NCBI GenBank assembly: GCA_965279515.1
Contig: CBDIID010000003.1
Coordinates: forward strand, 1,984,001 to 2,048,000
Source of the DNA: Turneriella sp.
GTDB lineage: Bacteria; Spirochaetota; Leptospiria; Turneriellales; Turneriellaceae
Direction: 5' to 3'
DNA: 64,000 nt
In this document: positions 5,556-22,141 of the stretch, one piece after another
Layout of the letters: each line of letters begins with the position of its first letter
How positions within the stretch are numbered: the first letter of the stretch is position 1
Notes under the pieces: generated by a model
The model's input: the letters and a program-made list of their open reading frames with translations, nothing else
What the model was told of the DNA's origin: nothing
Databases searched by the model: none
Position numbers and translations under genes: made by a program

Positions 5556-6410
5556 TTACAGCGTTATTGAAAAACTTGCGGTTGTAAGTACGGTGGTATT
5601 CCCGTTGTTCACAGTCAAAGTGCCGGTTGCAAGCTTATCCCCCGTATCAAAGTAAACGCTCGCTCCTCCCGCAGCATCCGCGTAACAATAGTACTTGTAG
5701 GTGCCTGCGGGCAGCAGGTTCACCGCAGCGCCATTTCCGGTCATCGTTCCTATACCGGTACGCGTATAGTAAGCCAGCGGGTGTGACGTCGAAGTGAAGG
5801 TTGTCGTATTGGGATCTACAATAAAACAGCGATACGTAGAACCCGGCCCGGACTGAATGTCGAAGGTATGCTTCACGCCAACAGAGGTGTTACCGTTTGT
5901 GATACTGTAAGTGGTATCGCCGTTTATGGTCATGGTCGCATGCGCCGTGAGGAACGTGGCGGTGGCGTCGCTGGATTGAATGTGACCGTTCGCTCCGCAG
6001 CCGGCGATGGCATTATTGGTAAAAGTTACATTCGCGTCGCCGGCAGAGCGGACTGCGAAATAGAGATCATAGTTGCCGTTTGCGAGAGTAGCATTTGAAC
6101 CCGTTAAACAATTCGTACCACTGGGAGAAATGAGCGTTTGCGTTACGGTTGCGCCGCCGGCACCTGTAGTCACGGTCGCGCTGGGTACTCCAGCCACCAA
6201 GCCGCCGTCTTTATAGAGCAAAACCGTGAAAGTCTGGCTTGCGTGCGTTGCGTCACCTGAGGGAAATGTAACGCTCACCGTTGCCGTACCCTGGGTAGGT
6301 GATGTACTCGCAACAGGCGGTTTGTTGACAACCGGGTCAAAGACGACGTTGGACTGCGCGCAGTGTGCCAGGGCAAAAACTACAAAAACCGACAAACCCT
6401 TCTTCAACAT
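5556..6410 (-). CDS. Hypothetical Thr/Gly-rich lipoprotein
   Basis: ATG at 6410 overlaps the upstream stop (TGATG); lipobox-like ALAHC; beta-rich composition. Confidence 0.7.
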   Translation of the reverse strand: MLKKGLSVFVVFALAHCAQSNVVFDPVVNKPPVASTSPTQGTATVSVTFPSGDATHASQTFTVLLYKDGGLVAGVPSATVTTGAGGATVTQTLISPSGTNCLTGSNATLANGNYDLYFAVRSAGDANVTFTNNAIAGCGANGHIQSSDATATFLTAHATMTINGDTTYSITNGNTSVGVKHTFDIQSGPGSTYRCFIVDPNTTTFTSTSHPLAYYTRTGIGTMTGNGAAVNLLPAGTYKYYCYADAAGGASVYFDTGDKLATGTLTVNNGNTTVLTTASFSITL

Positions 6411-8998
6411 CAAGGTAATCCTCTCACGCAACGAATGTTTTTCTTAGGCGGCTTCAGGCCGGCAATGATTGTCGAATTATCTTTTTGTGCAATACTGGGA
6501 AATCCGGCAATGTAGTTGAATCCCCACGCCTGGTTGAAGTTCGGATACTGGAGCGGCGTTGCATCCTGCGGATCATAACCGAACTGACCGTTAAAGTTGT
6601 AGTTTGTTGACGATGCATAATCTTCTGCATAGACATTCGGTGTCGGGAAAATTGCCGTATCAATCGCGACTCCCACTGTGCCAAAGAGCGAACGATTGGC
6701 AATGCTCTTGAGCTCATTGATGGTCGGTGCGCGCCAGGCATAGCGCAGCGAAGTGCTGGTGATCGCCGCATTATCATAACGGATTGCATTCAAACTGTCA
6801 CAATAGTTGAGTGCATCGTTCCAAAGCGCAGAATCATTTGTGGAATCGCCGTCATCGGCGCAGGTAGCATTGTCAAAGGTGCCTTTGCGGCACTGCTGCC
6901 AACGCAATTTGTTCACGGTGTCATCTACGACCTGCGCCCCGGCGAAAGTAATATTCTGCGTTACAACGGAATACGCCGTACCTCCGGTGAGCGCTGCCGT
7001 CAGCGTCGCAGTATACCCGGACAGCGAAACTGCGGTGACGGGCACCGCCGAGGCTGAGGCGAATGTTGCTGCCACAGTCGGTATGCCGCTCACAATTTTG
7101 TAATTGGTAAGGGTCGCTGCCTGGGTCGCATTGGGCAGGCGGTCAAAAACAACCTGCACTGTACTGGTATTGGGCGATGCCGCGCTGACGATATTAAAGG
7201 CTGTGTTCGTTGCGGGGCTGGCTGTTGTCGGAGCGCCTGAAAACAAAACGGTCTTGTTTGTCAGCGCCAGGGTATTCGTGGCATTATCCATAACATTATT
7301 AATGTACAGACGGTAAGGCGTATTCGCTCCAGGCGCGGTGGAAGTGGTTATCTTAACGGTTTTCCCGCTGACGAGCGCAGAGTCAACGACGGGTGCAACC
7401 ACACCGCAATCCGCTGCCGCACCGGCTGGACAGATGTGAAAATTAGCCGGAACCCCCCCGCTGGTGATATGCGGATCGAGGTTAAAGGTAATCAGAATCC
7501 CGTGCTTGTTATTGACAATGTCATAACTTGCTTTTGCCGAGACGATGTTAAAAGTTGCATTGGCGTCATAACCCGAAAAAGTTCCGCCAATAGTCGCCAA
7601 TGCCTGCCCGGCTCCCTGCACGCTCGCCGTATAACTTTGTGTGGGCGGTGCCACTGATGGTCCGGCAACGCAGCGCACCTTCTTCTTATTCGTTGTCTTG
7701 CGGTTAGATTCGAGCAGGGAGCCTGAACCACCGCCAGCGCCCATAGACCCCTTTTTAAACTCAACAACATAGGCCTCGCCGTAATACGTTTGCCCGTTTA
7801 GGCGCGCCGAGAGACCTGTGGCGGTCCAGTAGCCCTTGAGAGGTGTATTGGGAAATGCCCCTTCCCAATAGGGGAAATCGTCAATTTTATTTCCGTCTAT
7901 CGCAGGAATTTCAGGCGCGGCTAAACCTGGCTCTGGTTGACCAACTTCGACACGGGCACCATAATCTACTAAATGCTCCAGCTCGTCGACCGTGGGCAAC
8001 CGCCAGTCCTTGCGGCCACCGTAACCCTGGCCGTTATTTGTTGTATTGAGCGTAGCGCAGGCATTGACCGCCTGCCCCCACGTGAAATCACTTGCGGATG
8101 GTGGTGCACATTTTTGACCTGAAGCCGGCCCATCATTATAATAAGAGCCCTGCGTACACGTTCTCCAAATTAAGGTCGTAACGGCATCGACCGAATACGG
8201 ATAGCAAGCATTGGATGCGCCACCATTGCAGTTTGCTGATACCATATTTAAGGGATTTTCTGAGGCGCTAAAGCGCCGGCCGAATTGATTGCCGCCAGCA
8301 GATGCACCATAAAGCGTCGGGCCGAAATTCGTGTTGCGGGGTTCGATAAAACCATTTTGTCCCGCCGGGTAATTCTGCGAGCCAATCGGATGATCATCAG
8401 TCATCGATCTTGTGCAATCATTTCTGGGAGTCCAGGATTGTGGCGAGCCACTAATCGCGTAAGAATAACAGACATCCTGCCCGGTCGGTACAACCTTGTA
8501 TTTCCCGGGATTCCACCCCACTGTGAATGAAATCTTATTATCGTTCAACAGCGGCATGTCGTCGAGGTTGACCAGCGTGCTATTGTCAAAATCAAAACCG
8601 ATGATGTTGTTCTCAGGCCAGCGCACCCAGCCCAGCTGAATCGTCACAGTGTCGTTCGCGTAGGTGGTTGACGACCAGGTAAAGGTCGCGCCCGAATTCG
8701 CCACCGCATACCAGATAATATCGTTATTCGAGCCGATGTCGCGCACCCAGGTATTGATGACCGGCGTCATGGCTGTCTTCATGCTCATATCAAAGACGAC
8801 TTTAATCTGCGTACCGTTGCTGCCCGTCACCGGCGATACGGTCGAATTATCTGAGGGCGTGGTCGTCAGAATTTTGGGATTCACCTTAGCACCCCGGCCA
8901 GAGATACTATTCTGCGGGGGGGCAAATTTCTCGAAACCAGCGTTGCAGGCAACAGAAAATAGTGCAATGAATACGAAAAGACGGGGTTTTTTTGACAT
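6410..8998 (-). CDS. Surface lipoprotein with two DUF1566 (Lcl C-terminal, CLec-fold) domains and Ig-like domains
   Basis: Lipobox-like SVAC; two copies of the D..T/N.L.W..C...W..A..C..LN...WRxPT..EL...FP...RCV pattern; start placed at MSKK. Confidence 0.85.
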   Translation of the reverse strand: MSKKPRLFVFIALFSVACNAGFEKFAPPQNSISGRGAKVNPKILTTTPSDNSTVSPVTGSNGTQIKVVFDMSMKTAMTPVINTWVRDIGSNNDIIWYAVANSGATFTWSSTTYANDTVTIQLGWVRWPENNIIGFDFDNSTLVNLDDMPLLNDNKISFTVGWNPGKYKVVPTGQDVCYSYAISGSPQSWTPRNDCTRSMTDDHPIGSQNYPAGQNGFIEPRNTNFGPTLYGASAGGNQFGRRFSASENPLNMVSANCNGGASNACYPYSVDAVTTLIWRTCTQGSYYNDGPASGQKCAPPSASDFTWGQAVNACATLNTTNNGQGYGGRKDWRLPTVDELEHLVDYGARVEVGQPEPGLAAPEIPAIDGNKIDDFPYWEGAFPNTPLKGYWTATGLSARLNGQTYYGEAYVVEFKKGSMGAGGGSGSLLESNRKTTNKKKVRCVAGPSVAPPTQSYTASVQGAGQALATIGGTFSGYDANATFNIVSAKASYDIVNNKHGILITFNLDPHITSGGVPANFHICPAGAAADCGVVAPVVDSALVSGKTVKITTSTAPGANTPYRLYINNVMDNATNTLALTNKTVLFSGAPTTASPATNTAFNIVSAASPNTSTVQVVFDRLPNATQAATLTNYKIVSGIPTVAATFASASAVPVTAVSLSGYTATLTAALTGGTAYSVVTQNITFAGAQVVDDTVNKLRWQQCRKGTFDNATCADDGDSTNDSALWNDALNYCDSLNAIRYDNAAITSTSLRYAWRAPTINELKSIANRSLFGTVGVAIDTAIFPTPNVYAEDYASSTNYNFNGQFGYDPQDATPLQYPNFNQAWGFNYIAGFPSIAQKDNSTIIAGLKPPKKNIRCVRGLP

Positions 8999-9072
8999 TA
9001 TGAGGCTAGTGCTCCTTAATGTTATACGAGGCGTTTGCGCCAATGTGCCAAAAAGATAGTGAACAAGTGTAT

Positions 9073-9477
9073 TTACTCGGCAGGAGGCTTTTTTTCGAGC
9101 AAGATCTGCTCTGCCCGCGTGAGGTTATCCACACCACTCTTCAGCAGGTTCAAAAAGAACTGCGGATGCAGCCCGCCTAGAAGATTTATCGCCCTTTTAT
9201 CCATAATCGCCAGGGTCGCAGACATCGATTTCACCTTGAAACTCTGCACCCGCGTCTTCGAGCCCGCCATCACCTCGATATCGCCAAAAAAACCGCCTGC
9301 TTCAATCTCGGTACCGTACTTGAATGCCTCGCTACCGTCGACCTCGATGACGACACCGTCGACCACTACGTAAATGTTGTCGTCATTGTCTTTGCCGATG
9401 CGGTAGATATAGTCGCCGCCGCGCAAATGCCGGTGCGGCATCGCCTCGGCCTGCAGCAGCAGATCAAAGGCCGGCAT
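9073..9477 (-). CDS. Stand-alone cyclic nucleotide-binding domain protein (divergent phosphate-binding cassette)
   Basis: IYVVVDGVV...GGFFGDIEVM...TRVQS; no HTH. Confidence 0.75.
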   Translation of the reverse strand: MPAFDLLLQAEAMPHRHLRGGDYIYRIGKDNDDNIYVVVDGVVIEVDGSEAFKYGTEIEAGGFFGDIEVMAGSKTRVQSFKVKSMSATLAIMDKRAINLLGGLHPQFFLNLLKSGVDNLTRAEQILLEKKPPAE

Positions 9478-9832
9478 CTGCCACCTTCTTCATCACGCGT
9501 GCCGCGCGCTTCGCCACGACACCGATCAGATTTGTCAGAAAAGTAGGATTGCTTTTTGCGAGCCAGGCAAAGGTCTGCAGATCGATTCTACCGAGCTTTG
9601 CGCCGGCAGATGTCACCGTCGCCGAAGCCGAGCGCGGCATCGCGCGTATCAGTGCCATCTCGCCGAAAAAATGCCCCTGCGAGAGCGTGCGCAAAACGCC
9701 GAAACCTTTTTTGCTGATTTCAACTTCTCCGGAAAAAACAAAGTACATGCAGCCATTGGATTTTTCACCTTCGGCGAAAATCACCGCGCCCTTTTCGGCA
9801 TTGAGTGGTTGTATTTTGTATGCGCCGGTCAT
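9464..9832 (-). CDS. Stand-alone cyclic nucleotide-binding domain protein
   Basis: IFAEGE..MYFVFSGEVEI...GHFFGEMALI...PRSASA canonical CNBD; no HTH. Confidence 0.92.
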   Translation of the reverse strand: MTGAYKIQPLNAEKGAVIFAEGEKSNGCMYFVFSGEVEISKKGFGVLRTLSQGHFFGEMALIRAMPRSASATVTSAGAKLGRIDLQTFAWLAKSNPTFLTNLIGVVAKRAARVMKKVADAGL

Positions 9833-10917
9833 GCCTTGAGGCCGAAAAGTCTCACGCTCTCTTGTTTACCCCTGAGCTGTGTGGTTTCGAGTTCGACAAC
9901 AGCGCCGGCGGGTTTGCCTGCGGCGCGCGTCGGTTCGTCGATGATGATGTTGTACGGCGAATCTTTCGTGAGGTCCTGGATGCGCGCTGCGGTATTTACG
10001 GAATCACCCATCACCGCAAACTTGATCAGGCGCTCTGAGCCGATATTGCCGGCGAAAATTTTGCCCGTCGAGATACCCATACCGAACCCGTAAGGCACCT
10101 TGCCGGCGATTTCGCGCAGGCGGTTGATCGAATTCATATGCGCCTCAATGGCGAGTGCCGCCTTCACGGCGTTCTCGGCGTCCTCGGGTTTTGGAAAAGG
10201 ACAGCCGAATGTGGCAAGAATGCCGTCACCCAGCAGCTCGTTGATCGAACCGTGATTGTTAAAGACAATATCCATCAGGTCGGCAAAGAGTTTGGAGATA
10301 CGCTCGGCATAGGCCTGCGGACCAATCTTCTCAGCCATGGTTGTCGAACCGCGGATATCGAAGAACATGATCGATGCCGGCACAATCGTGCCACCCAGTT
10401 CGGTGGAAATTTCTTCGCTGAGAATCTTTTCGACAAGGTCGTCGGAGAAATAACGCTGCAAACTCTTCTTTTCCTTTTCGAGTTTGGTGTTAAGTTCCTG
10501 GATCTGTTTCTTATAACTGACGCGCTCGAATGCCTGCTGTATCTTCATCGAGACATCCGCAAAATTGAGCGGTTTCGGCAAAAAGTCGTCGGCGCCGGTC
10601 GACATACAGACGATGCGTATTTCGGGCGAATCTTCTGCCGACATCATAAAAACCGGCACGGGTATCGAGCCGTCGGTATCGCGGATATGTTTCAGGATTT
10701 CCATGCCGGGGTTATCCGGCAGATGCAGATCGACGATCGCCATATCGACGGTGTTCTGGCTGAGATAGACGATCGCCGCGGTTGCGGTTTCTACGGTAAC
10801 CACTTCATAACCCCAGGCTTGCACAAAGGCCTCAAGAGCCGTGCGCTGCACGACCTCGTCTTCCACAATGAGAATTCTCGGCTGTGCGAAGGCAGGTGCC
10901 GTGGTTTGTACCGACAT
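9829..10917 (-). CDS. Response regulator receiver fused to class III nucleotide cyclase (guanylate-type signature)
   Basis: REC (IVEDE, VDLHLP, FLPKP), coiled coil, then cyclase FFDIRGST...NELLGDG...GDSVNTAARIQ. Confidence 0.92.
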   Translation of the reverse strand: MSVQTTAPAFAQPRILIVEDEVVQRTALEAFVQAWGYEVVTVETATAAIVYLSQNTVDMAIVDLHLPDNPGMEILKHIRDTDGSIPVPVFMMSAEDSPEIRIVCMSTGADDFLPKPLNFADVSMKIQQAFERVSYKKQIQELNTKLEKEKKSLQRYFSDDLVEKILSEEISTELGGTIVPASIMFFDIRGSTTMAEKIGPQAYAERISKLFADLMDIVFNNHGSINELLGDGILATFGCPFPKPEDAENAVKAALAIEAHMNSINRLREIAGKVPYGFGMGISTGKIFAGNIGSERLIKFAVMGDSVNTAARIQDLTKDSPYNIIIDEPTRAAGKPAGAVVELETTQLRGKQESVRLFGLKA

Positions 10918-10919
10918 AA

Positions 10920-11747
10920 CTAGCTGGCGGCGAGCATCGCGAACGGATGCCCTTTGATTTTCGTCAGCGCATCGGGTGAAGCATGACGGATGAGAACATT
11001 CTGCGTACCGCCTAAATCAGTATAACAGCGTTGTACATTTGTCTTTGCGGCTTCAGGCACGGGAATTTCCAGGAGCACCGAGGCGACCACAGCAGCGATG
11101 TAAGTTGACTTCTCCAGCGGGTCGAGCAGATTTGTGTATTCTGTCGTGGGCGAAATCTCCATCAGGCGTTTAAAGATATCGGGGAGTTTCCACGCTTCGG
11201 CGGCGCGTTTGCCGAGCGTCGTATGCGTCGTGCCATACGATTGTTTTTCGAGCTTTGAGAGCTCCCACTTGTTTTTTTCGCAGGCGTCGATCATGTCGCT
11301 GTAATGCCCCTGCTTCTGCAACGCCATGATATTCATGCCAATGCTGTGCAAAAGCGCGGCGAGAAAACTTTCATCCGCCTGCGGCTTCAACGTCGTTTCG
11401 AGGGCGACGTTCTGTGCCACGAGCGCGGCATAAATGGGAAAGCGGTTGAGATATTTCTTAAAAGTCTCGCTTTTATAATTCGCCGCCATCGTCTTCGTGC
11501 TGAGATAAATAACGAGGTTCTTGGTGGCCTTGATGCCGAGCACCGCCAGGGAATCGCGGAGAACTTTCACCTTGCCGGAACGCCCGTAAAATGCCGAGTT
11601 GGCAACGCGCAAAAGTTCGGCGCTGATCGCCTTGTCAGGTATGACAAGTTTTTCAAGGTCGGCAGCGCCGTTCTTGGGGTTATTGGCATCAAACTGGATA
11701 ACCTGGGCAACGATAGTCGGTAACGGTGGGATCGCAATGTCTTCCAT
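10920..11747 (-). CDS. HDOD domain protein
   Basis: IPPLP, DKAISAELLRVANSAFYG, FLAALLHSIG, WKLP. Confidence 0.9.
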   Translation of the reverse strand: MEDIAIPPLPTIVAQVIQFDANNPKNGAADLEKLVIPDKAISAELLRVANSAFYGRSGKVKVLRDSLAVLGIKATKNLVIYLSTKTMAANYKSETFKKYLNRFPIYAALVAQNVALETTLKPQADESFLAALLHSIGMNIMALQKQGHYSDMIDACEKNKWELSKLEKQSYGTTHTTLGKRAAEAWKLPDIFKRLMEISPTTEYTNLLDPLEKSTYIAAVVASVLLEIPVPEAAKTNVQRCYTDLGGTQNVLIRHASPDALTKIKGHPFAMLAAS

Positions 11748-11819
11748 GCCTAAACCGACCTAACCTTGCGGCTGGCACGAAAAGCGATTTTCGGATTCTG
11801 CTGTACCTTGGAGCGTATC

Positions 11820-12263
11820 TTACCAGATACCGCCAAAACGGTGCATAACCCCGGTCAATGCAAACAGGATAGCCAGGATCGTCACAGCCGTGATATGCGC
11901 AGCGAGGCTATTCAGGGATTTCGGCCCCAATGCCGGAAGAATGCGCAGCCGGGCATGCGCCGCGAGAATGACCGTCAGCAAAAGCAGAGATAGCTTGAGT
12001 GTCACCGTCCGCGAGACAGCACTCGAAAACGTAAACCATAGGGATAAATCCGGCAACTGGTGGTAGGCCATCCAAATGCCGGTCGCCACAAGCGTAACCA
12101 GAGCGGGGATGCCGATTTTTTCAAAATGACTTTCGAACTCCGTAATCTTCATAGGATTGCGGCTTTTGAGGGCAGGTAGCAGGATCACGAAAAAAAGCAC
12201 GATATGACCGCCCGTCCAGATAGTGGCGGCGATGAGATGCAGGGCGATGATGGGTGCGTACAT
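11820..12263 (-). CDS. CopD family membrane protein
   Basis: LHLIAATIWTGG, LVATGIW, LKLSL; four TM helices. Confidence 0.8.
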   Translation of the reverse strand: MYAPIIALHLIAATIWTGGHIVLFFVILLPALKSRNPMKITEFESHFEKIGIPALVTLVATGIWMAYHQLPDLSLWFTFSSAVSRTVTLKLSLLLLTVILAAHARLRILPALGPKSLNSLAAHITAVTILAILFALTGVMHRFGGIW

Positions 12264-12268
12264 AAAAT

Positions 12269-13432
12269 TTATCCCGGTTTTCCGTCGCTGCGCGGCCCAA
12301 ACAATATCGGTGTATACATAAAAAGAAAAGCCCCGAAGGCCGTGAGCCAGAAAACGGCCGCGAATATATAAGCCTCGCTCAGCTTACCGGCAAACGGCAT
12401 CAGTACGCGGGCAAGCACAGCCGCATTGATGAAAAAATAGGCGCCCACTACAAGCAGCGACGCCTTGATCGGTCGCCCTGTATGCCCGAGAGCAACCCGC
12501 GTCATCATGCCAAATATAAAAACGCCGGCCGCGCCAATACCGAACACATGCCAGACAGGAGACGACGCAATGAATCCCAGGCCCGCAAGCGGCAGCATAA
12601 CAAAACCAGCAACGAGCCAAAAATAACCGGCGTAAAGAATAACGAGAATGGGGAATCTCGCGGAAGAAAAAGGCCGCCAGAGCCACCAGCGTACCGCATG
12701 CAATAAAGCATTCAAGGCAAAAATCGCCGCTGACCATTTTTCCATCACCGGGTGCAGGGGCTGGACCGCATAAATTATGAGGGCGAGAAAGCCCAGCGGC
12801 AGCACAGCCGCTTCTATCCGAGGAACGATGCGCGGCTTATTATGCTGCATGACGACGCCGGCAAAAAACGGCAAAATGCGCCCGGCAATTACCGCGACGA
12901 AGAGCACAACAACGATGAGACCGAAATGCACTGAGTGGAGAAACAAAGACTGCAGTTGTGGCATGGCATTCGCCGCAAACGCCGCCGCCTGCGCCATCGT
13001 ATAGGTAATAAAAAGAAAAAAAACACCATGATTGGTTTTCTGCCGCGTCCGGATCAAAGGCCGCAGGCAATATAAGGCAAAGAGATTTGCCGCAAGATCG
13101 GCAGTAAAGGCGGCGGATGACAGTATCGGCGGCAGAAAGAAAGCAAACCGCCCCAGCAGCCAAAGGAAAAATAATACAACGAGGGCTTTGCTGCCGGTCA
13201 GTTGCTTACCAGCCCAATGTTGCCCTGCTGTGAACAGGAAGCCGAAGATCGCCGCGCGGCAAAAGCCAAAGACCATCTCGTAGGTGTGCCAGCTGACCGG
13301 AGAGTTATTTATCGGGAATGCGTCGATGCCGCGCAATCTTAAAATCCAGATAGCAATGACCGCCGCTGCATGCACAGCGCAAGCGAAAAAAAAGATGCGG
13401 AAGGCGGTGGCAAATATGGTTAATCTGTGCAT
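12269..13432 (-). CDS. nnrS: NnrS family heme-copper membrane protein
   Basis: AFRIFF, WHTYEMVFGF, GFLFTA, GRILPFF, RVALGHTGR, PRSDGKPG. Confidence 0.92.
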   Translation of the reverse strand: MHRLTIFATAFRIFFFACAVHAAAVIAIWILRLRGIDAFPINNSPVSWHTYEMVFGFCRAAIFGFLFTAGQHWAGKQLTGSKALVVLFFLWLLGRFAFFLPPILSSAAFTADLAANLFALYCLRPLIRTRQKTNHGVFFLFITYTMAQAAAFAANAMPQLQSLFLHSVHFGLIVVVLFVAVIAGRILPFFAGVVMQHNKPRIVPRIEAAVLPLGFLALIIYAVQPLHPVMEKWSAAIFALNALLHAVRWWLWRPFSSARFPILVILYAGYFWLVAGFVMLPLAGLGFIASSPVWHVFGIGAAGVFIFGMMTRVALGHTGRPIKASLLVVGAYFFINAAVLARVLMPFAGKLSEAYIFAAVFWLTAFGAFLFMYTPILFGPRSDGKPG

Positions 13433-13468
13433 GGCATAGTCTACTAAAAAAATCCCACTCTCATTGCG

Positions 13469-14122
13469 CTACTTTCCGATTTTCTCTTTAAACGTCTCGA
13501 TATTGACGCTTAGGCCCGCATGCTGCAGAATAATTTCGCCGCCGGGCGAAAGCAGTGTGAATACAGACGAGTGTGCAAATTCGCCGTTGTCCTGTTTTTT
13601 GTAGTTAATCCCCAGCGCCGCCGCGACTTCGCGGATCGTTTCAGGTTTGCCCGCAAGCAAGGTGAACGAATCCGTCAGCCGCATTTTCGTGATGAATTTG
13701 CGCAATGCGGCCGGATTGTCGCGTTCATGGTCGAAGGAGATCATGACAAAGCGGGTTTTTTCACGCTGCGCTGCAGAGAGACTCTTCTCGAGCCGCAGTA
13801 TTTCGGCCGCGATGCGCGGGCAGATTGCGGTGCAGGTCGCGTAGAACATCGCGACGACCACGTACTTGCCCTGCAACTTATGCAGCATTAGCTCTTTGCC
13901 GTTTTGGTCAGTAAATTTATCGTGAAACTGGTAGAGCGACGCGCCCGAGATGTGCCCCGCCGGCATCGCATGATCGGCATGGGGATTTTTTGGTTTGGAG
14001 CAAGAAATCAGTAAAGTCAGAATCAACAATGGCGCACAGAAGCGGGGATTTTTAAGGGGGCCAAGGCGTTTGCGAGCAAACACCCCGGACCACCCCCTTA
14101 AGCAAAAATACGGTAGTTTCAT
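13469..14122 (-). CDS. SCO family copper chaperone lipoprotein
   Basis: FYATCTAICP (CxxxC), ISFDHERD, FAHS; ATG at 14122 overlaps the upstream stop (ATGA). Confidence 0.9.
   Translation of the reverse strand: MKLPYFCLRGWSGVFARKRLGPLKNPRFCAPLLILTLLISCSKPKNPHADHAMPAGHISGASLYQFHDKFTDQNGKELMLHKLQGKYVVVAMFYATCTAICPRIAAEILRLEKSLSAAQREKTRFVMISFDHERDNPAALRKFITKMRLTDSFTLLAGKPETIREVAAALGINYKKQDNGEFAHSSVFTLLSPGGEIILQHAGLSVNIETFKEKIGK
14052..14101. repeat. Palindromic element inside the SCO N-terminal coding region
   Basis: ttaaggggg (14052-60) pairs with cccccttaa (14093-101); inner gtttgc-ga-gcaaac hairpin. Confidence 0.65.
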
Positions 14123-14823
14123 GATACATCCTTGGCACACCGGAAGCCTAAGTTATGACCGGTATAATTTCCTTTAAGAGAGCTGCGCATGCCATACCGC
14201 ATGTAAGTCGCGTAGTTTCTGAGATCGCTGCCCGAAAGCGCCGTCGCACCGCAGAAGAGATTCGATTCGGTATCGGTGTCGGCGCGCGAATCGCCGGTAA
14301 CGGTCGATGAATTAAAATCCTCAACCCATTCCCAGATCAAGCCATGCAGATCGTGCACACCCTGCGGGCTCACGAGGCCCGTGCCGGTCAGGGCGCCCTG
14401 ACCCATATCATTCGGTTTGCCGAACCAGCTTAAGATACGCGCATTGACCGTGGGTCGCGCATCCCATTTATTATAGGTGGCGACATATTCCCATTCATAG
14501 AGCGTCGGCAAACGTTTGTTCTGCGCCCGGCAATAAGCACGCGCGGCATACCATGAGATCCGCGTCATCACCGTATCACGGGGGGCGCGGGCAAAATCGA
14601 TATTTCTCAGATAACCGGCGTCGGATTTAATGCCCGGCACGTTCTCTTTTTTCCACTGCGGATTACGTTCGAGAAAAGTGGAGAACTGGGCGACCGTAAC
14701 GGGGTAGGCATCGATGTAAAACTTCTGAATGCGGACAGCCTTCTGCTCTTTCTTCAGGTCGAAAGGGCGAAAGCTGCCCGCGGCAATCAATACCATTGTG
14801 GTAAAGATTGCCGTCATCGTCAA
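14119..14823 (-). CDS. Formylglycine-generating enzyme family protein (NirV-like)
   Basis: [38 protein letters not shown]; directly downstream of nirK. Confidence 0.88.
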
Positions 14824-16211
14824 TGCCCTCTCAGGCCGGCCACCTCGCTGGCTGTGACTTCGCCACCCGAGTTACCCCAGGTATTGAGGACGTAGGTCAG
14901 AACGCTGGCGATATCGTCGTCCGATAAACCGAGCCCCGGCATCACGCTGTCGTACTTCTCTTTGTTGACGGTGATCGCGCCGGTCTTGCCTTCGAGCAGA
15001 ATTCTAATCGCGCGCGCTTTATCGGCGTTCAGGTAATCAGATTTCGCGAGAGGAGGGAATGCTTTCGGCACGCCCTGACCTTCGTTCATGTGGCACGCCT
15101 GGCAAGTCGTACCATAGATACGTTTGCCTTCGGCGATGCGCTCGTCTTTGGTTTTCGCGGCGACCTTTTTGTCTTTTTCAGCCGGCATAGTCTGCGTTGC
15201 GCCACCTTCACCCAGATAAACAGTGTCAGCTTGCTTACCCGAATAGATCTTCGCATTGGCTTCGCCCTCGGCCTTAAGCAGGCCCAGCGCGCCCTTGTTA
15301 AAGGTACGGAAAATCGAGTGGTCGACGATCACATAGTTACCGGGTATATCCATCTTAAAATCGACAATCGCTGAACCGCCGGCGGGTACCAGTGTGGTCT
15401 GCACATTCTTCTGATTTCTTTCCGTGCCGCCTTCTGTATAAACAGAGTCAAAGATTTCGCCGATGACGTGGAATGAAGACACGAGGTTCGGACCGCCGTT
15501 GCCGACGAAAAACCGTACCTTGTCGCCGACTTTGGTTTTCAGCGCCTTATCACCCGTCATCGAACCCACAGAACCGTTAAACACAACGTATTCGGGTTTC
15601 TCATCGAGCGCCTTATTCATATCGAAAGGTTGCAGGCCGGTTTGCCCGTTCTTGCCCTTCGTATAAAATTCGGACTGCATGACGTAGAATTCTTTATCCA
15701 CCTTAGGCAATCCGTCTTTGGGTTCGACCAGAATCAAACCATACATGCCGTTCGCGATGTGCATACCCACGGGCGCCGTGGCGCAGTGGTAGACATAGAG
15801 GCCGGGATTCAACGCCTTGAAGGAGAATTTGGAACTGTGGCCAGGAGATGTAAGCGAAGCCGCGGCGCCACCGCCGGGACCCGTGACAGCGTGCAGGTCG
15901 ATGTTATGCGGCATCTTGCTCGTGGGGTGATTATTAAGCGTGAACTCCACATCGTCACCCTCGCGCACGCGCATCATCGGGCCGGGCACAGTGCCGCCGA
16001 ATGTCCAGAAGGTGTATTCGACACCATCGGCTAGACGCCCCTTAAGCTCTTTGGTTTCAAGTTCGATGACCACCTTGGTGTTGCCGCTTCGCGTTAGCTG
16101 CGGCGGTACTTCAGGCGCATAGGTCAGAATAGCTTTCTCTTCTTTAACCCCGCAGGCGGTGACGATGAGGGCTATTGCGAGCCCCAGCCAATATTGCTTT
16201 TTAAATCTCAT
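14820..16211 (-). CDS. nirK: Copper-containing nitrite reductase (AniA-type lipoprotein) fused to C-terminal cytochrome c
   Basis: [33 protein letters not shown] copper motifs; CQACH heme motif; lipobox VTAC; RBS ggagga. Confidence 0.97.
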
Positions 16212-16272
16212 ATCTCCTCCTCTACGACATCACTACTATGCTGTAAACATAAACTAATTTTGGCATATTGCA

Positions 16273-16286
16273 TTGACCTGGATCAA
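16273..16286. promoter_or_regulatory. FNR/DNR/NnrR-type box upstream of nirK
   Basis: TTGAC-CTGG-ATCAA, one mismatch to TTGAT-N4-ATCAA, between nirK and the divergent Crp/Fnr gene. Confidence 0.85.
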
Positions 16287-16347
16287 TTCCATTAGCTTTT
16301 AAAGTTTGTCCGGACAGAATAGGCGTACGAACTTACCGTGAAGAGAC

Positions 16348-16965
16348 ATGACCTCCATCGAATTCAAAGCGCTCAGCCCGGAGAAGGCGGAAAACCTGCG
16401 TTCACTTTCGCATTACCGCCGTTTCAATCGCGGTGGGATGGTCTTTTTACAGGGCGACAGTTACCTGGGCCCGTTTATCGTAGCTGAAGGGCAATTCAAA
16501 GTATACCTCGCTGGTGATGACGGGAAAGAATCTGTTCTGAATATTTTTCGCACCGACGACCTTCTGGCCAGTGGTCCATTGTTTCTCGGTGGCGGATATC
16601 CCGCCTCTTGCTCTGCGGTTACCGACGGTTGTTTGATTTGTTTTGAATACGACCGCCTGTTGAAGCTGCTCAAAGCCGATGAAGCAATCAACGGATATTT
16701 CCTCCAACGCAGTATCCACCTTATCCCGAGACTCAAAGAAAAAATCGAAAATCTCACCTTGAAGAACGCCGAACAGCGGATGATAGCGTATCTGAAATCT
16801 CTGGGGGCCGACAAACAAGCCGTAGCGTTAGAAATACCGAAACATCAAATCGCGGCCCTACTTGATCTTTCACCCGAATCCGTCAGCCGGGTATTGGGAA
16901 AATTAGCCGCGCGAGAAATACTCAGCGTCGAGGGCAAAACGTATAAACTGAATAAACTGGGCTGA
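16348..16965 (+). CDS. Crp/Fnr family transcriptional regulator (DNR/NnrR-like)
   Basis: cNMP-like domain plus HTH with PESVSR (ExxSR FNR-type recognition helix); no N-terminal Cys cluster. Confidence 0.92.
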   Translation: MTSIEFKALSPEKAENLRSLSHYRRFNRGGMVFLQGDSYLGPFIVAEGQFKVYLAGDDGKESVLNIFRTDDLLASGPLFLGGGYPASCSAVTDGCLICFEYDRLLKLLKADEAINGYFLQRSIHLIPRLKEKIENLTLKNAEQRMIAYLKSLGADKQAVALEIPKHQIAALLDLSPESVSRVLGKLAAREILSVEGKTYKLNKLG

Positions 16966-16966
16966 T

Positions 16967-17521
16967 TTAGGGTGCGATCTTAGGCTCAAGCCAACTTGCG
17001 GGGGTTATCGCGGCTTCTTGATTTTCATCGGCCAATGTCATTTCACCATCCTGTATGAGGCAGGTAAACGCCATCGTTCGTTTTACCATAGTCGACAATG
17101 GCCTGATGTTATCATCCTGCAAGAATCGTACATGCAGGTTATCGAAACGGGCCAGTGAAGATTGAATTCCCTGCCACCACGGTTTCGCGCGATGCAGCCC
17201 GTAGCAGTAAATATAGACCTGCCGTGCACGGCCACAGGCTTTGCGGATTCTTTTTTCGTCGGGTTGGCCGATCTCAATCCAATCGAGAATTTCTCCGGAG
17301 AGATTTTTTTTCCAGATCGCGGGTGTGTCGTCGACGCTGACGCCACCAGCAAATTCAAGCGCGGGGTCTGCGTGGATGGCAAATACCAGCAAACGTATCA
17401 TCATACGCTCATCGGTTTCTGATGGATGGCGGGCAAGAGTCAGCTTGTGAGATTGATAATAATCGCGATCGGTATCCGTTATCTGTAGATCGGCTTTGAA
17501 GATAGTTGATTTGATTGCCAT
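16967..17521 (-). CDS. yaeQ: YaeQ family protein
   Basis: MAIKSTIFKA, ARHPSETDERMMIRL, WIEIGQPDEKRIRKACGRA. Confidence 0.93.
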   Translation of the reverse strand: MAIKSTIFKADLQITDTDRDYYQSHKLTLARHPSETDERMMIRLLVFAIHADPALEFAGGVSVDDTPAIWKKNLSGEILDWIEIGQPDEKRIRKACGRARQVYIYCYGLHRAKPWWQGIQSSLARFDNLHVRFLQDDNIRPLSTMVKRTMAFTCLIQDGEMTLADENQEAAITPASWLEPKIAP

Positions 17522-17596
17522 AGAGATTCGGGATGTCCGCTCCCTTTTGCATATGCGGGTTAGCCCGCAAACCCTTTGGCGGCAGATTCCAAAAGG

Positions 17597-19306
17597 CTAC
17601 TTCGCGGCTTCCTGGAAAAAATCCCCAAGGGCTTCCGTTAACCTCGTGGCATCACTCAAGACGCGGTACGAAGCACCTTGCATCATGAGCGGAATCGACG
17701 CTTTGTCGCCTTTACCGATGGCGAGTGCATGCACACGGATACCACTCTGCCTGAGTTCGCGCACCGCATGACGTACATCCTCGATACCATAACGACCTTC
17801 ATAATAATCATAATCGTTGGGTCTGAGATCAGTTAAAAGAATAACCCACTTCTGCCGGGCTGCCACAAACCCCATAAGACTCTCCGCATGGCGCAGTGCC
17901 GGCCCGATACGCGTATAACCGACCGGCTCGAGCGCACCGAGTCGATTGCGCGCTCCTTGCCACGGCGTTAGCTCCTCTTTGACTTTAAGAAAACGACAGT
18001 GATTACGTGTGCGCGAATAGAAGGCCGAAACGGCAAACCGAATATGGTACTTATCAAGACATTCACCGAACGCAATGAGTGCGTCTTTTTCAACTTCAAC
18101 AATCCGTCGCCCGGCGATAAAGGAATCTGTGGAGAGACTGATATCCGTCAGAAGGTGTATGTAGAGATCGGAGAAAGCCCGGGAACGGCGGGCGTAGATA
18201 TTTTCGGAAGGAGTGATACCCGCGGCGAGATCGCCAAAGCTCTCAATTGTGGCATCCAAATCAACCGTATCACCGGCAACTAATCTTCTTTTGACGTTCT
18301 TTTCCTGAATGAGCTTCAGAGTCCGGCGCTCCAATCCGTGCCGGTCGCGCATCGTTCGTCGCAGCGATGCCGCCACGAATGCCTCATCGGCAGCCGTGAA
18401 TTCTTCGACCAATAGCCCGCAATGTTTTTCTCGCAGCGCATTCCGTCTGAAGTCCCATTCGGGATAAAAAAATTCTGCCCGACTATTTTCAACCTCTGCC
18501 ATTTCGCCGCCTGGCGTGGCCCCGGCCTCCGTTTCAATCGTGGCATGCGTTGCATCATCGCTGCGGATAAAATGCTTCAGTTTCAAATCTTGCAGAGCAT
18601 CACGGTGTTCCTGTAGTTCATCGCTGCCGTCGAGATCGCGCCAGACACCATCAAATTCTTCGGCGGTTTCGATTTTTTCAAAGTTGTGCCCCAGCGTATA
18701 CTCTTCAATCTTGGCACGATCGGGTTCAAGCATTTCGGGCGATTCAATCTTTACGGCAATGGAGTGACTGGTCCGCCTGGTCTCAGCAGCCTTTTCTTTT
18801 CTCAGGCCCTGAACCGACTGTAAACCGGCTTTATCTGGCGATCTCTCGGGCGCTTCTGCAGAAATTAAAAGCTTGAGCAGAATTTTGTGCTGCGTAGAAT
18901 GATTTTTCCTGAGCTGGTGCATTTCGGTGCAGATCGGTTGCAGAAATTTCGCGAATGAGCCGTATTCCCTGTGCAGCCAGCGTAGCCTGCGAAATAGATT
19001 CGTCTGTGGTTTTGCGCTGATGAGCAGTATTCCTAACTCAAGGAAGCTCCGGCTCAAATCAGCCGATGTCATGAGGCCTTGCGAAAATGGCAGACACAGT
19101 TTGCCGCCGATAAGCTTGATCTTGCCCGGCTCGTCAATGAGGTCGACCGACACACCCGTTACAAGATCCGCAAAGCGAAGCAGCCGGCCAGCACCACCGC
19201 CTGCACTCCTGAAGGGTAAATGAGATGATCGGCGATCAGCGGCACGCCGGCGCAGCCCGGTCAGCCAGCGCGCTGCTTTCTGAAACAGCCATTGGTCGAG
19301 GTCCAT
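17597..19306 (-). CDS. norD: Nitric oxide reductase activation protein NorD (vWA)
   Basis: YPEWD, DISLST MIDAS, YTRIGPALRHA, YEGRYGIED; first in line after norQ. Confidence 0.92.
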   Translation of the reverse strand: MDLDQWLFQKAARWLTGLRRRAADRRSSHLPFRSAGGGAGRLLRFADLVTGVSVDLIDEPGKIKLIGGKLCLPFSQGLMTSADLSRSFLELGILLISAKPQTNLFRRLRWLHREYGSFAKFLQPICTEMHQLRKNHSTQHKILLKLLISAEAPERSPDKAGLQSVQGLRKEKAAETRRTSHSIAVKIESPEMLEPDRAKIEEYTLGHNFEKIETAEEFDGVWRDLDGSDELQEHRDALQDLKLKHFIRSDDATHATIETEAGATPGGEMAEVENSRAEFFYPEWDFRRNALREKHCGLLVEEFTAADEAFVAASLRRTMRDRHGLERRTLKLIQEKNVKRRLVAGDTVDLDATIESFGDLAAGITPSENIYARRSRAFSDLYIHLLTDISLSTDSFIAGRRIVEVEKDALIAFGECLDKYHIRFAVSAFYSRTRNHCRFLKVKEELTPWQGARNRLGALEPVGYTRIGPALRHAESLMGFVAARQKWVILLTDLRPNDYDYYEGRYGIEDVRHAVRELRQSGIRVHALAIGKGDKASIPLMMQGASYRVLSDATRLTEALGDFFQEAAK

Positions 19307-20085
19307 CAGAATGTCAGATCGGCGAGATCTTGCAGAGCGGCGACAATGTCGCTCTCGTCAGTGAGCGGTAAGATGACTGCCATACGGATGGCCAGCCGGG
19401 GAGGCAGATTTTTCTCCATGAGTTTAGCCGCCATGACCAAAAGGCGGGTTGAAACCGTCTCGGTGAGACCTAGTTCGGGGCGCGAACGTACCAAATTAGC
19501 AAATTTAACGAGTTTTGCTGCAACCGGATTGCCCACCCCAGTCTCCTGTTCCAAAATGCGCGCTTCTACCTCTGGCTTCGGGTAATGAAAATCGAGTGCA
19601 ATAAAACGCTGGCGTGTCGAAGGCTTGAGTTCCTTAAAGCTTTTTTGATATCCTGGATTAAAAGAAGCGACGAGCAGAAAATCCGGATGCGCCGGAAGCA
19701 CTTCATTGAGTCGCTCTATGTAGAGTTCGCGGCGGTGATCAGTCAGCGAATGCAACACGACCATCGTATCGGGCCGGGACTCCGCGATTTCATCAATATA
19801 CACAATCGCACCGGCACGCACCCCGCTGGTGAGTGGGCCATCCTGCCAAACAGTTTCGGAACCCCGAATCAAATGGCGCCCGACCAGGTCTACCGCTGAA
19901 GTCTCATCGTTACAGACAACCGTAATCAGCCGCCGCTTAAGGCGGTATGCCATTGCCTCGAGAAAGCGCGACTTACCCGACCCGGTTGGTCCCTTCAGGA
20001 GCAGCGGTAGTTTCTGGGCCGCCGCCGCTTCGAAGGCTTCAATCTCTTTCCCCGTTGGAAAATAGAACGGAGCTGCGCTACTCAA
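19306..20085 (-). CDS. norQ: MoxR-type AAA ATPase NorQ
   Basis: KGPTGSGKSRF, YIDEIAE, SFNPGYQ, LKPSTRQRF, STRLLV. Confidence 0.95.
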   Translation of the reverse strand: MSSAAPFYFPTGKEIEAFEAAAAQKLPLLLKGPTGSGKSRFLEAMAYRLKRRLITVVCNDETSAVDLVGRHLIRGSETVWQDGPLTSGVRAGAIVYIDEIAESRPDTMVVLHSLTDHRRELYIERLNEVLPAHPDFLLVASFNPGYQKSFKELKPSTRQRFIALDFHYPKPEVEARILEQETGVGNPVAAKLVKFANLVRSRPELGLTETVSTRLLVMAAKLMEKNLPPRLAIRMAVILPLTDESDIVAALQDLADLTF

Positions 20086-21422
20086 TCGGTATTAGCCCCG
20101 ATTGCTTCGTTCGATGGTCTGCCATGCCGCAGGAAATCATAGATAAACAGTAATATCCCGACAGTAAAGACGGTGGCTGCAAGCATCATGCCGATGAAGT
20201 GAACTTGTATCTCTTTCTGGACGGTCAGAAAATCCATCCCGAGCTTACGTTCAAGATAGACTTGGGTAATCCCGGCGACAGCAAGGGCTGAAGTCATTGC
20301 GACCATGCCGATGTTTGTGAACCAGAATGAGAGATAACCGCTGAGCCGATCGAAAAGTTTACGCCCCGTGAGTTGGGGCATTGCATAGATAATGAATGCG
20401 ATCACCAACATACCGTATGCCCCCCAGAACGCCATGTGACCATGCATAGCCGTAATCAGCGTACCGTGCGTCCATTTGTTAACCTGCGGCCATGTATGCG
20501 CAAAGCCCAGAAAACCGGCTCCGACAAAAGACATGATCGCGCAACCGAGGGTCCAGTAAAGTGCCAGTTTATTGGGATGATCTTTGCCTTTTTTCCGGTA
20601 CATATTGATGGCCCAGATTGCCATACCGAGAAACGCCAGCGGCTCCAGAGCTGAAAATATGCCACCGACCATGAGCCAATACTTCGGTGAACCGATCCAG
20701 TAGTAGTGATGTCCGGTTCCCAGAATTCCTGAAAGAAACGTTAAGCCCACAATTACGTAGAGCCATTTCTCTATTACCTCGCGATCGACGCCTGTCAGCT
20801 TGATGAGCAGAAAGGAAAGAATCGCACCCATAATCAGCTCCCACACCCCTTCTACCCAGAGGTGGACGACCCACCAGCGGAAATATGAGTCGAGAGTTTG
20901 ATTATCGAAATAAATCATGCCAGGAAGGTAAAGAAGTGCCGCGGCAAGCAGGCCAAAGAAAAAAACCAGCTGCGTTGTGCTATGCTTCTTAGCGTTCCAA
21001 ACTGTCATGCCGATCAGATAAAGAAATAGCAGTACGTTGGCGACGACGAGATAATCCAGAGGGCGGGGTATCTCAAGAAACTTTCTGCCTTCCCACCAGT
21101 TGAAGTGAAACCCGATAATTGCCGTAACTCCCACCACGACCCACGAAACCAGTTGCACCCAGGCAAGCTGGGGCATGTGCAGCTCGCTGTCCGACTCTTC
21201 TGGAATAATGTAATACGCTGCGCCCATAAAACCTGTGAGCAACCATACCACGAGTAGATTCGTATGTGTGGCACGCGCCGCATTGAAAGGGATATAATCA
21301 TGAAGACCGTCCATACCGATGCGCGCAAATCCCATGATAAAACCATAGGTAATCTGCAATACTATCAGCAATACTACAACGGCGAAAAACCAATACGCAA
21401 TTTTTTGTGATTTGAATTTCAT
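20082..21422 (-). CDS. norB: Cytochrome c-dependent nitric oxide reductase large subunit
   Basis: WWVVHLWVEGVWE, GTGHHYYWIG, HGHMAFWG. Confidence 0.97.
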   Translation of the reverse strand: MKFKSQKIAYWFFAVVVLLIVLQITYGFIMGFARIGMDGLHDYIPFNAARATHTNLLVVWLLTGFMGAAYYIIPEESDSELHMPQLAWVQLVSWVVVGVTAIIGFHFNWWEGRKFLEIPRPLDYLVVANVLLFLYLIGMTVWNAKKHSTTQLVFFFGLLAAALLYLPGMIYFDNQTLDSYFRWWVVHLWVEGVWELIMGAILSFLLIKLTGVDREVIEKWLYVIVGLTFLSGILGTGHHYYWIGSPKYWLMVGGIFSALEPLAFLGMAIWAINMYRKKGKDHPNKLALYWTLGCAIMSFVGAGFLGFAHTWPQVNKWTHGTLITAMHGHMAFWGAYGMLVIAFIIYAMPQLTGRKLFDRLSGYLSFWFTNIGMVAMTSALAVAGITQVYLERKLGMDFLTVQKEIQVHFIGMMLAATVFTVGILLFIYDFLRHGRPSNEAIGANTD

Positions 21423-21430
21423 GGTTCCTC

Positions 21431-22141
21431 CTATTTTTGTTGAACTAAATAACGCACGATACCTGCCCGTTCTACATCATTGAGCGGTAATTTTGGCATG
21501 GTAGTACCAGGCTTAACGCCCTGTGGGTCTTTGAGCCAGCGGTCCAGGTACGCGGCGTCATACTTGCCACCGACGCGGTCGAGCGCAGGCCCAACGACAC
21601 CGCCCTTACCTTGTAGCGAATGGCAGGCCGAACAAATCTCACCGAATTTTTTGGGTTGGCTCGCTGCGGCGAGGGATGCCGGAGTGAGTCCAGTCGCAGT
21701 TGCCTGACTTGCCGCCGAGGGAGCCACAATGTCCGGAGCGGGGGGCCAACCATTGGTATCAACTTCACCAATCCATTTGAAAAATGCGATGATATCGGAG
21801 ATTTCCTCTTCGGAAAAATTATATTTCACCATCTTACGCTCACCCGGGAACATGGCCTGAGGATCCTTTATGAAAGTCCGGATAAAGACTTCTCCCCGCT
21901 TTTGAAAAACCTTGGTGAGCTCGGGTGCGTAATAGGCCCCCTCACCGAGTAGCGTATGGCATCCCATACAATTATTCTTTTCCCAAAGATATTTACCGCG
22001 CTTTACCGCGTCGGACAAATTATGAGCATTTGTGCGCAAGTTATTTTGCCTTACCGTATCAACGGTTAACGCGATAAAAACGCCGCCGAAAAGCAGTGTA
22101 CCGCCCAGGAAAAAAGCCCGCGCCTGTGACTTTGAAAGCAT
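21431..22141 (-). CDS. norC: Nitric oxide reductase small subunit NorC with a second cytochrome c domain
   Basis: TM anchor, NCMGCHTLLGEGAYYAPEL, then Ala/Pro linker and CSACH...MP domain. Confidence 0.93.
   Translation of the reverse strand: MLSKSQARAFFLGGTLLFGGVFIALTVDTVRQNNLRTNAHNLSDAVKRGKYLWEKNNCMGCHTLLGEGAYYAPELTKVFQKRGEVFIRTFIKDPQAMFPGERKMVKYNFSEEEISDIIAFFKWIGEVDTNGWPPAPDIVAPSAASQATATGLTPASLAAASQPKKFGEICSACHSLQGKGGVVGPALDRVGGKYDAAYLDRWLKDPQGVKPGTTMPKLPLNDVERAGIVRYLVQQK

Follow-up and report, generated by a model that had tools for sequence, protein, structure and literature searches.

A predicted guanylate cyclase with an HDOD-domain partner and a candidate cyclic GMP receptor in the spirochete Turneriella

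A receiver-linked class III cyclase encoded by Turneriella sp. (Spirochaetota; Leptospiria) carries the first base-reading site of a guanylate cyclase and, by analogy with Cya2 of Synechocystis, is expected to use guanosine triphosphate (GTP) and to make cyclic guanosine monophosphate (cGMP). Its gene lies in a stretch of 64,000 nucleotides that we analysed as a whole and call the window (assembly GCA_965279515.1, contig CBDIID010000003.1, positions 1,984,001 to 2,048,000 of the forward strand). Between positions 9073 and 11747 of the window, the cyclase gene follows the gene of an HDOD-domain protein and precedes those of two small cyclic nucleotide monophosphate (cNMP)-binding proteins, CNB1 and CNB2. 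The full reading, in which the guanylate cyclase has the HDOD protein as its partner and CNB1 as its cGMP receptor, we regard as evenly balanced between right and wrong. Few bacterial cGMP systems have been characterised. A study of leptospiral cyclases reports that cyclic adenosine monophosphate (cAMP) controls motility (PMC9043183), and our literature search, which had subscription papers outside its scope, turned up neither a guanylate cyclase from a spirochete nor a cyclase paired with HDOD. The present case stands out by an origin that can be traced, by its HDOD partner and by a receptor candidate.

Organisation of the locus

The four genes, with the codons of the principal residues, are as follows.

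10920..11747, minus strand: HDOD-domain protein, 275 amino acids (PF08668, E 1e-36), with the degenerate HD motif LLHSIG; likely a non-catalytic partner of the cyclase
9829..10917, minus strand: receiver, coiled-coil linker and class III cyclase, 362 amino acids (PF00072 and PF00211); predicted guanylate cyclase
10731-10729, minus strand: codon of D63 in the receiver-cyclase
10239-10237, minus strand: codon of E227 in the receiver-cyclase
10023-10015, minus strand: codons of K299-F300-A301 in the receiver-cyclase
9464..9832, minus strand: CNB1, stand-alone, 122 amino acids (PF00027, 60 bits); CRP-like domain and C-helix, no DNA-binding domain
9073..9477, minus strand: CNB2, stand-alone cNMP fold, 134 amino acids (PF00027, 27.0 bits, just under the cut-off of 27.5)

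The HDOD and cyclase reading frames are separated by 2 nucleotides (nt), those of the cyclase and CNB1 overlap by 4 nt, and those of CNB1 and CNB2 overlap by 14 nt. A preliminary description of this DNA, made from its letters, had set four tightly coupled minus-strand genes at these same coordinates, and the junctions bear it out. It had also reported no kinase or phosphodiesterase in the operon, and a domain search of the four genes agrees. Metallophosphoesterase matches number 8 in the genome, none of them inside the window. The closest named relatives are Turneriella and unclassified spirochete assemblies, at 68-92% identity.

The cyclase has a GTP-type pocket

The cyclase scores 60.4 bits against PF00211 (cut-off 21.9), no NCBIfam family rises above its cut-off for this protein, and the class III catalytic set is complete (D187, D231, N308, R312 and K351). 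A homologue search found 636 proteins, and the residue counts that follow refer to the 120 matches listed plus the query. Among these 121, Glu227 occurs with Lys299 in 73, always together with Ala301; Lys227 (41/121) and Arg227 (3/121) all occur with Glu299, and the remaining 4 have other residues, two of them being broken or cut sequences. D187, D231, N308 and R312 are retained in 73/73 of the listed Glu-Lys homologues. Both metal-binding Asp residues, the N..AAR pair, E227 (within NELLGD) and K-F-A at 299-301 are present in the query, and the preliminary description had numbered E227 and K-F-A correctly.

The best solved match of the cyclase is Cya2 (Synechocystis PCC 6803; 2w01 and 6fht). 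When the query is aligned with 2w01, E227 falls without gaps on the Cya2 Glu (IDEFMGD) and K-F-A falls on K-Y-G, as expected if E227 occupies the purine-specificity site. The first base-reading site is thus of the Cya2 type, with Glu227 and a supporting Lys299, and the adenylate-type combination, Lys at one base-reading site and Asp/Thr at the other, is absent (Glu227, Ala301). The second site also has a small residue, Ala301 (73/73 Glu-Lys homologues among the matches listed) where Cya2 has Gly. Across the genome's 50 class III cyclase domains the first site is Lys in 48, Ala in 1 and Glu in 1, the last being E227.

Replacement of this Glu by Lys in Cya2 (E488K) is reported to give an adenylate cyclase specific for adenosine triphosphate (ATP), whereas Cya2 constructs with the natural Glu/Lys pair are GTP-specific (PMC5995499). 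The Glu is described as being assisted by the Lys, with the Gly of the second site, together with a Tyr, acting sterically (PMC6005667), and Glu is reported as the main contact in a fungal cyclase structure bound to GTP (PMC7384201). Because in Cya2 this Glu alone decides between GTP and ATP, we propose that the Turneriella enzyme probably prefers GTP and that its product is likely to be cGMP. The preliminary description had reached a similar view from E227; a second Cya2-type residue, Lys299, and an exchange of Lys/Glu for Glu/Lys of apparently single origin (see below) strengthen it.

Several points weigh against this proposal. The Tyr that stands before the catalytic Arg in Cya2, where it enhances activity with GTP, is not present, residue 311 being Ala or Ser. 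In the mycobacterial cyclase Ma1120, mutation of Lys to Glu (K101E/D157G) is reported to leave the preference for ATP in place (PMC4215837), and class III specificity is described as being set during catalysis and as poorly predicted (PMC7384201). The 73 Glu/Lys cases, moreover, count as one event and not as 73. It could therefore be argued that the change from Lys227/Glu299 to Glu227/Lys299, an exact charge reversal of the pair in the sister enzymes, preserves a salt bridge and leaves the substrate unchanged, the enzyme making both cGMP and cAMP or mostly cAMP. We consider such relaxed specificity unlikely, since the pair is the natural one of the GTP-specific Cya2 constructs, the adenine-reading Thr has become Ala in 73/73 of the matches listed, and the Glu/Lys state is fixed in two families.

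A heterodimer would offer another explanation, with this protein as the regulatory half and a Lys-type receiver-cyclase paralogue as the other; alternatively, its product might be a cyclic nucleotide with a pyrimidine base, of the kind used in Pycsar defence. The genome does encode three close Lys-type receiver-cyclase paralogues, and weak matches to the PycC and PycTIR profiles were obtained (61 and 44 bits). However, the residues of both half-sites are fully kept, although a regulatory half could do without them, the locus is single-copy and vertically conserved, and the PycC matches span only the common class III fold. We give these two ideas, taken together, very little credence. Pycsar as such was rejected because the cNMP proteins carry neither a TIR domain nor a transmembrane effector and the PADLOC matches cover shared domains only.

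The receiver is the only input domain, the CHASE2 sensor and transmembrane segments of Cya2 being absent. Its phosphorylation set is intact, with an acidic pocket (E19 and D20), the phospho-acceptor D63, S93 and K115, and D63 is kept in 68/73 of the listed Glu-Lys homologues. Control by phosphorylation, as proposed in the preliminary description, is consistent with this site. A fixed cognate kinase was also considered and rejected, a histidine kinase gene lying directly downstream at one inspected locus only (L129).

The pocket probably arose once from Lys-type relatives

Two trees were built by a quick method with midpoint rooting and with the three specificity columns masked. The first comprised 67 homologues and three paralogues from the genome (70 rows), two broken rows and near-duplicates having been dropped; the second used the cyclase domain only (48 rows). 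In the first, 32 Glu-type rows form a single branch (SH-aLRT 99) inside the receiver-cyclases with Lys-Glu-Thr, and the sister of this clade consists of five Lys-Glu-Ala rows (support 89). The second tree agrees, placing 13 Glu-type rows together (support 91) and five Asp/Lys metagenome cyclases outside them.

Because the Glu clade nests among Lys-type relatives and has a Lys-Glu-Ala sister, the GTP-type pocket probably arose once in this spirochete class, independently of Cya2; Cya2 itself is absent from the trees, and its separate origin is read from this nesting. The adenine-reading Thr was perhaps lost first, with the Lys/Glu swap second. The adenylate-type ancestors, the intermediate and the switched form have the same domain layout and the same partner gene, and the transition from adenylate to guanylate cyclase should therefore be directly testable with natural proteins.

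Other departures from Lys were seen at the first site. Metagenome class III cyclases (L075, L077-L082, L084 and L087) have Asp there, with a second site that reads Lys-Tyr-Ala or Lys-Tyr-Thr; these Asp-type enzymes are unrelated to the Glu-Lys-Ala clade. In the window's own genome, Ala replaces the base-reading Lys in the class III cyclase at G000:C3:4017369-4017980.

The HDOD gene is the older partner of the cyclase

Gene order was examined by searching 190 genomes of the class, in which strong cyclase matches occurred in Turneriella and a second family (f62); names on the proteins among the matches listed include Leptonema. Forty loci were compared: 12 from other Turneriella, 16 of the Glu type from f62 and 12 of the Lys type. 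An HDOD gene lies directly upstream of the cyclase in 12/12 and 16/16 of the Glu-type sets (28/28) and in 9/12 Lys-type loci. Because it adjoins Lys-type cyclases too, the HDOD partnership predates the switch. The cNMP pair is found 3' of the cyclase in 9/12 of the other Turneriella loci, one of the rest ending at a contig edge and two being without the pair, and in 0/16 Glu-type f62 and 0/12 Lys-type loci. The ancestral unit is HDOD plus receiver-cyclase, and the four-gene form belongs to Turneriella. The conserved, self-contained four-gene operon of the preliminary description, for which conserved synteny had been named as a check, does not survive this comparison: its core is common to the adenylate-type sisters, and the cNMP pair was added in Turneriella. 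Four genes as the ancestral unit are likewise ruled out.

The HDOD protein has lost the His-Asp motif of metal-dependent HD hydrolases, and where the motif could be matched (33 of 38 orthologues) the residue pair is H-S, H-K, H-G or H-R, never H-D. This loss speaks against hydrolase activity, and a role as phosphodiesterase was rejected on account of it. Among longer reading frames of the same HDOD subfamily, 12 of the 13 picked are receiver-HDOD fusions. A fusion of HDOD to a cyclase was sought among the longer forms (488-2000 amino acids) and none scored, which is weak evidence. The preliminary description had cast the HDOD protein as scaffold or modulator, and a non-catalytic role would fit both the degenerate motif and the fusions of the subfamily. 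We infer that it touches the receiver of the cyclase, because other members of its subfamily are fused to receivers and it is itself devoid of metal ligands. SadB of Pseudomonas aeruginosa offers a likeness, as an HDOD protein that has no metal-binding set and is reported to work through protein contact; it differs in having a YbaK domain and AmrZ as target, and it is not known to be linked to a cyclase (PMC12075610). The HDOD-receiver-cyclase pair also provides a concrete partner for a domain family of mostly unknown function.

Receiver-HDOD fusions are expanded in several genera of family f2 (L191-L200), with up to 7 matches per genome. A degenerate EAL-domain gene is divergent from HDOD-cyclase in 9/11 mapped Glu-type loci of the second family (L122-L135, cluster c0), and its orthologue in the window's genome (G000:C3:1470625-1473600, 51% identity) adjoins a different HDOD gene.

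CNB1 has a protein kinase G-like pocket

CNB1 has a canonical phosphate cassette and, by model and fold comparison, a CRP-like fold, the model stopping at CRP residue 136. Its best sequence matches in the PDB are Plasmodium protein kinase G (PKG), and Arg48 on strand 5 and Ser68 align to R473/T493 of PfPKG domain D, positions defined as guanine-reading in PKG (PMC4412288); the strand-5 Arg is also reported as a guanine reader elsewhere (PMC8931422). Both Arg48 and Thr/Ser68 occur in 53/55 CNB1 orthologues with a readable motif (57 matches; Thr 46, Ser 9), and among 23 cNMP domains examined in the genome the strand-5 Arg occurs in one, CNB1. CRP is reported to read cAMP through a Thr/Ser pair on its C-helix (PMC10127613), and CNB1 has V113/M114 in place of this pair. 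It carries the residues that mark a cGMP-selective pocket of the PKG type, although these also occur outside cGMP systems. Orthologues of CNB1 turned up in 10/13 other Turneriella genomes, only where a Glu-type cyclase is present, and with CNB1 as query at E 1e-20 in 0/42 f62 genomes.

The two neighbours are related. CNB2 keeps the fold (model pLDDT 85.9, matching cNMP-domain folds), and an ESM Atlas search with it returned generic cNMP clusters only. Its pocket is not canonical, with Gly-Asp for Gly-Glu and an Arg followed by Val/Leu in 16/16 orthologues. Glu123 on its C-helix, at the position of E146 in XC_0249 of Xanthomonas, is invariant in the alignment of these 16; CNB1 has lost the acidic residue there (Met114). 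Of the two adjacent effector-less receptors in the preliminary description, CNB1 would stand, with its canonical pocket and PKG-type residues, whereas the pocket of CNB2 is degenerate. Neither is a CRP-type receptor such as CgrA or Clr, since PF00027 is the only domain in either protein.

Not all of the evidence favours CNB1 as the reader of cGMP. The Asn/Glu C-helix pair of the XC_0249 type is missing from CNB1 (V113/M114). The strand-5 Arg also occurs in a genome family of which two checked genomes hold only Lys-type cyclases (30/30 and 21/21), and Arg with Ser recurs in 8/38 distant matches; as proof of cGMP binding the Arg is thus ruled out. The C-helix Glu position is acidic in 49/49 unlinked homologues and is therefore no mark of cGMP systems. 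The best CNB1-like matches in genomes without a linked cNMP pair lack the Arg.

These points open the way to another explanation, in which the guanylate cyclase is real and the cNMP pair is an old, class-wide pair of the cAMP type that has fallen downstream of it in Turneriella, cGMP being read elsewhere or acting on the HDOD-cyclase unit. CNB1 and CNB2 are indeed members of a pair of small cNMP proteins, encoded in tandem, that is unlinked across the class and occurs also in genomes with Lys-type sisters only, and the pair is not beside the cyclase in 16/16 second-family and two Turneriella loci. Against this, the CNB1 frame overlaps that of the cyclase, and Arg with Thr/Ser marks 53/55 linked copies but 1/49 unlinked ones (strand-5 Arg in 6, with Thr in 1). 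We therefore think this explanation rather unlikely, and regard direct reading of cGMP by CNB1, judged from its residues, as an even call.

The effector-less tandem pair is widespread in the class (L162-L169 and L207-L224), all members being acidic at the guanine-reading position of XC_0249. These small proteins could be cyclic-nucleotide receptors of leptospires.

Proposed mechanism

We propose that the cyclase likely makes cGMP from GTP and that phosphorylation of D63 would turn the coiled-coil linker and close the homodimeric active site. The HDOD protein would likely tune the cyclase through its receiver or linker region. In Turneriella, CNB1 would bind cGMP through Arg48 and Ser/Thr68, possibly paired with CNB2. 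More speculatively, Glu123 of CNB2 may be supplied from the opposing helix, as E146 is in XC_0249, so that the single pocket of a heterodimer would be completed in trans. Free of output domains, the CNB pair would act by binding a target. With 48 Lys-type cyclases in the cell, a cGMP line kept apart from them would be reasonable.

Comparison with known cyclic GMP systems

Cya2 is similar in its class III set, its Glu with supporting Lys and its small residue at the second site. The Turneriella enzyme differs in having Ala for Gly, Ala/Ser for Tyr, a soluble receiver for the membrane CHASE2 and an HDOD partner, and it is nested among the Lys-type receiver-cyclases of its own class; the cyclase is soluble and accompanied by a candidate receptor. 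In Xanthomonas, a cyclase gene (XC_0250) is likewise linked to a cNMP-domain gene (XC_0249), the second substrate site has Ala, and Glu146 on the C-helix of the opposing subunit is reported to read guanine (PMC3770947). XC_0250 is without the Asn/Arg pair, both residues of which the Turneriella cyclase has, and XC_0249 carries a GGDEF output domain (PMC3770947), whereas CNB1 and CNB2 carry no output domain.

The gcy-cgrA system of Rhodospirillum centenum is similar by description, with guanylate cyclase genes and a cGMP receptor in an operon and Arg-Thr in the receptor cassette; CgrA, however, is a DNA-binding CRP (PMC10187061), whereas CNB1 stops at the end of the CRP C-helix. With PKG (PfPKG domain D and human PKG I domain B) CNB1 shares Leu-Arg on strand 5 and the cassette Thr/Ser. 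It differs in having no kinase, a CRP-like C-helix and no identified capping residue.

Upstream region and nitric oxide genes

The features upstream of the HDOD gene are as follows.

11778..11793, minus strand: conserved element AAAAnnGCTTTTCG, here inside an inverted repeat of 6 base pairs; it precedes the start of HDOD by 44 nt
11820-22141: denitrification cluster, directly upstream of HDOD
14820-16211: nirK with fused cytochrome c (TIGR02376)
16273..16286, no strand assigned: FNR/DNR-type box, exact match, between nirK and the DNR-like regulator
16348-16965: DNR-like regulator, best solved relative DNR (3dkw)
21431-22141, 20082-21422, 19306-20085 and 17597-19306: nitric oxide reductase-like genes, named from their translations

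A 14-nt element stands 43-44 nt before HDOD in the window and in 8/13 other Turneriella-type loci, and in 0/25 more distant loci; the 4.84-Mb contig has 2 such sites. It is likely to be the cassette's own promoter or operator. A promoter scan gave 6 sites against 6.1 expected.

Exact FNR/DNR boxes (consensus from PMC1274295) number 2 in the window (16273 and 22204) against 0.33 expected, and the one at 16273 heads a same-strand run whose first gene is nirK and whose last, copD, stops 72 nt short of HDOD. Ten Turneriella loci extend as far as nnrS; all of them have an exact box 48-51 nt before that gene, and at 9 of the 10 HDOD follows within 1.65-2.7 kb, a crude scan finding no terminator. The f62 loci all lack nnrS within 6 kb. 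In the window there is no box before nnrS (13432-13469), the nearest being before nirK; the gap before nnrS is 36 nt here, whereas L001, the closest relative, has about 445 nt. In three loci, none of which has the 14-nt element, a hemerythrin gene precedes HDOD at a spacing of -8, 15 or 35 nt. Read-through into the cassette from a promoter responsive to nitric oxide (NO) is possible.

A more elaborate proposal would join these observations. An adenylate cyclase under HDOD control would have changed stepwise, from Lys-Glu-Thr through Lys-Glu-Ala to Glu-Lys-Ala, giving spirochetes a cGMP signalling of independent origin; the old cNMP pair would have been recruited as a one-pocket receptor, convergent with PKG and completed in trans by CNB2; and the cassette would sit at the tail of a DNR-controlled NO operon. 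We consider the whole chain quite improbable. If true, it would constitute a bacterial link from NO to cGMP made by transcription and not by a haem sensor.

The denitrification cluster also holds a yaeQ-like gene, an SCO-like gene, nnrS and copD, with hemerythrins in relatives. On the other side of the cassette, a large Lcl-domain protein is encoded directly 3' of CNB2 (6410-9043), a position conserved where Turneriella loci carry the cNMP pair. A sigma-70-like site at 9025-8997 points to separate transcription of this gene.

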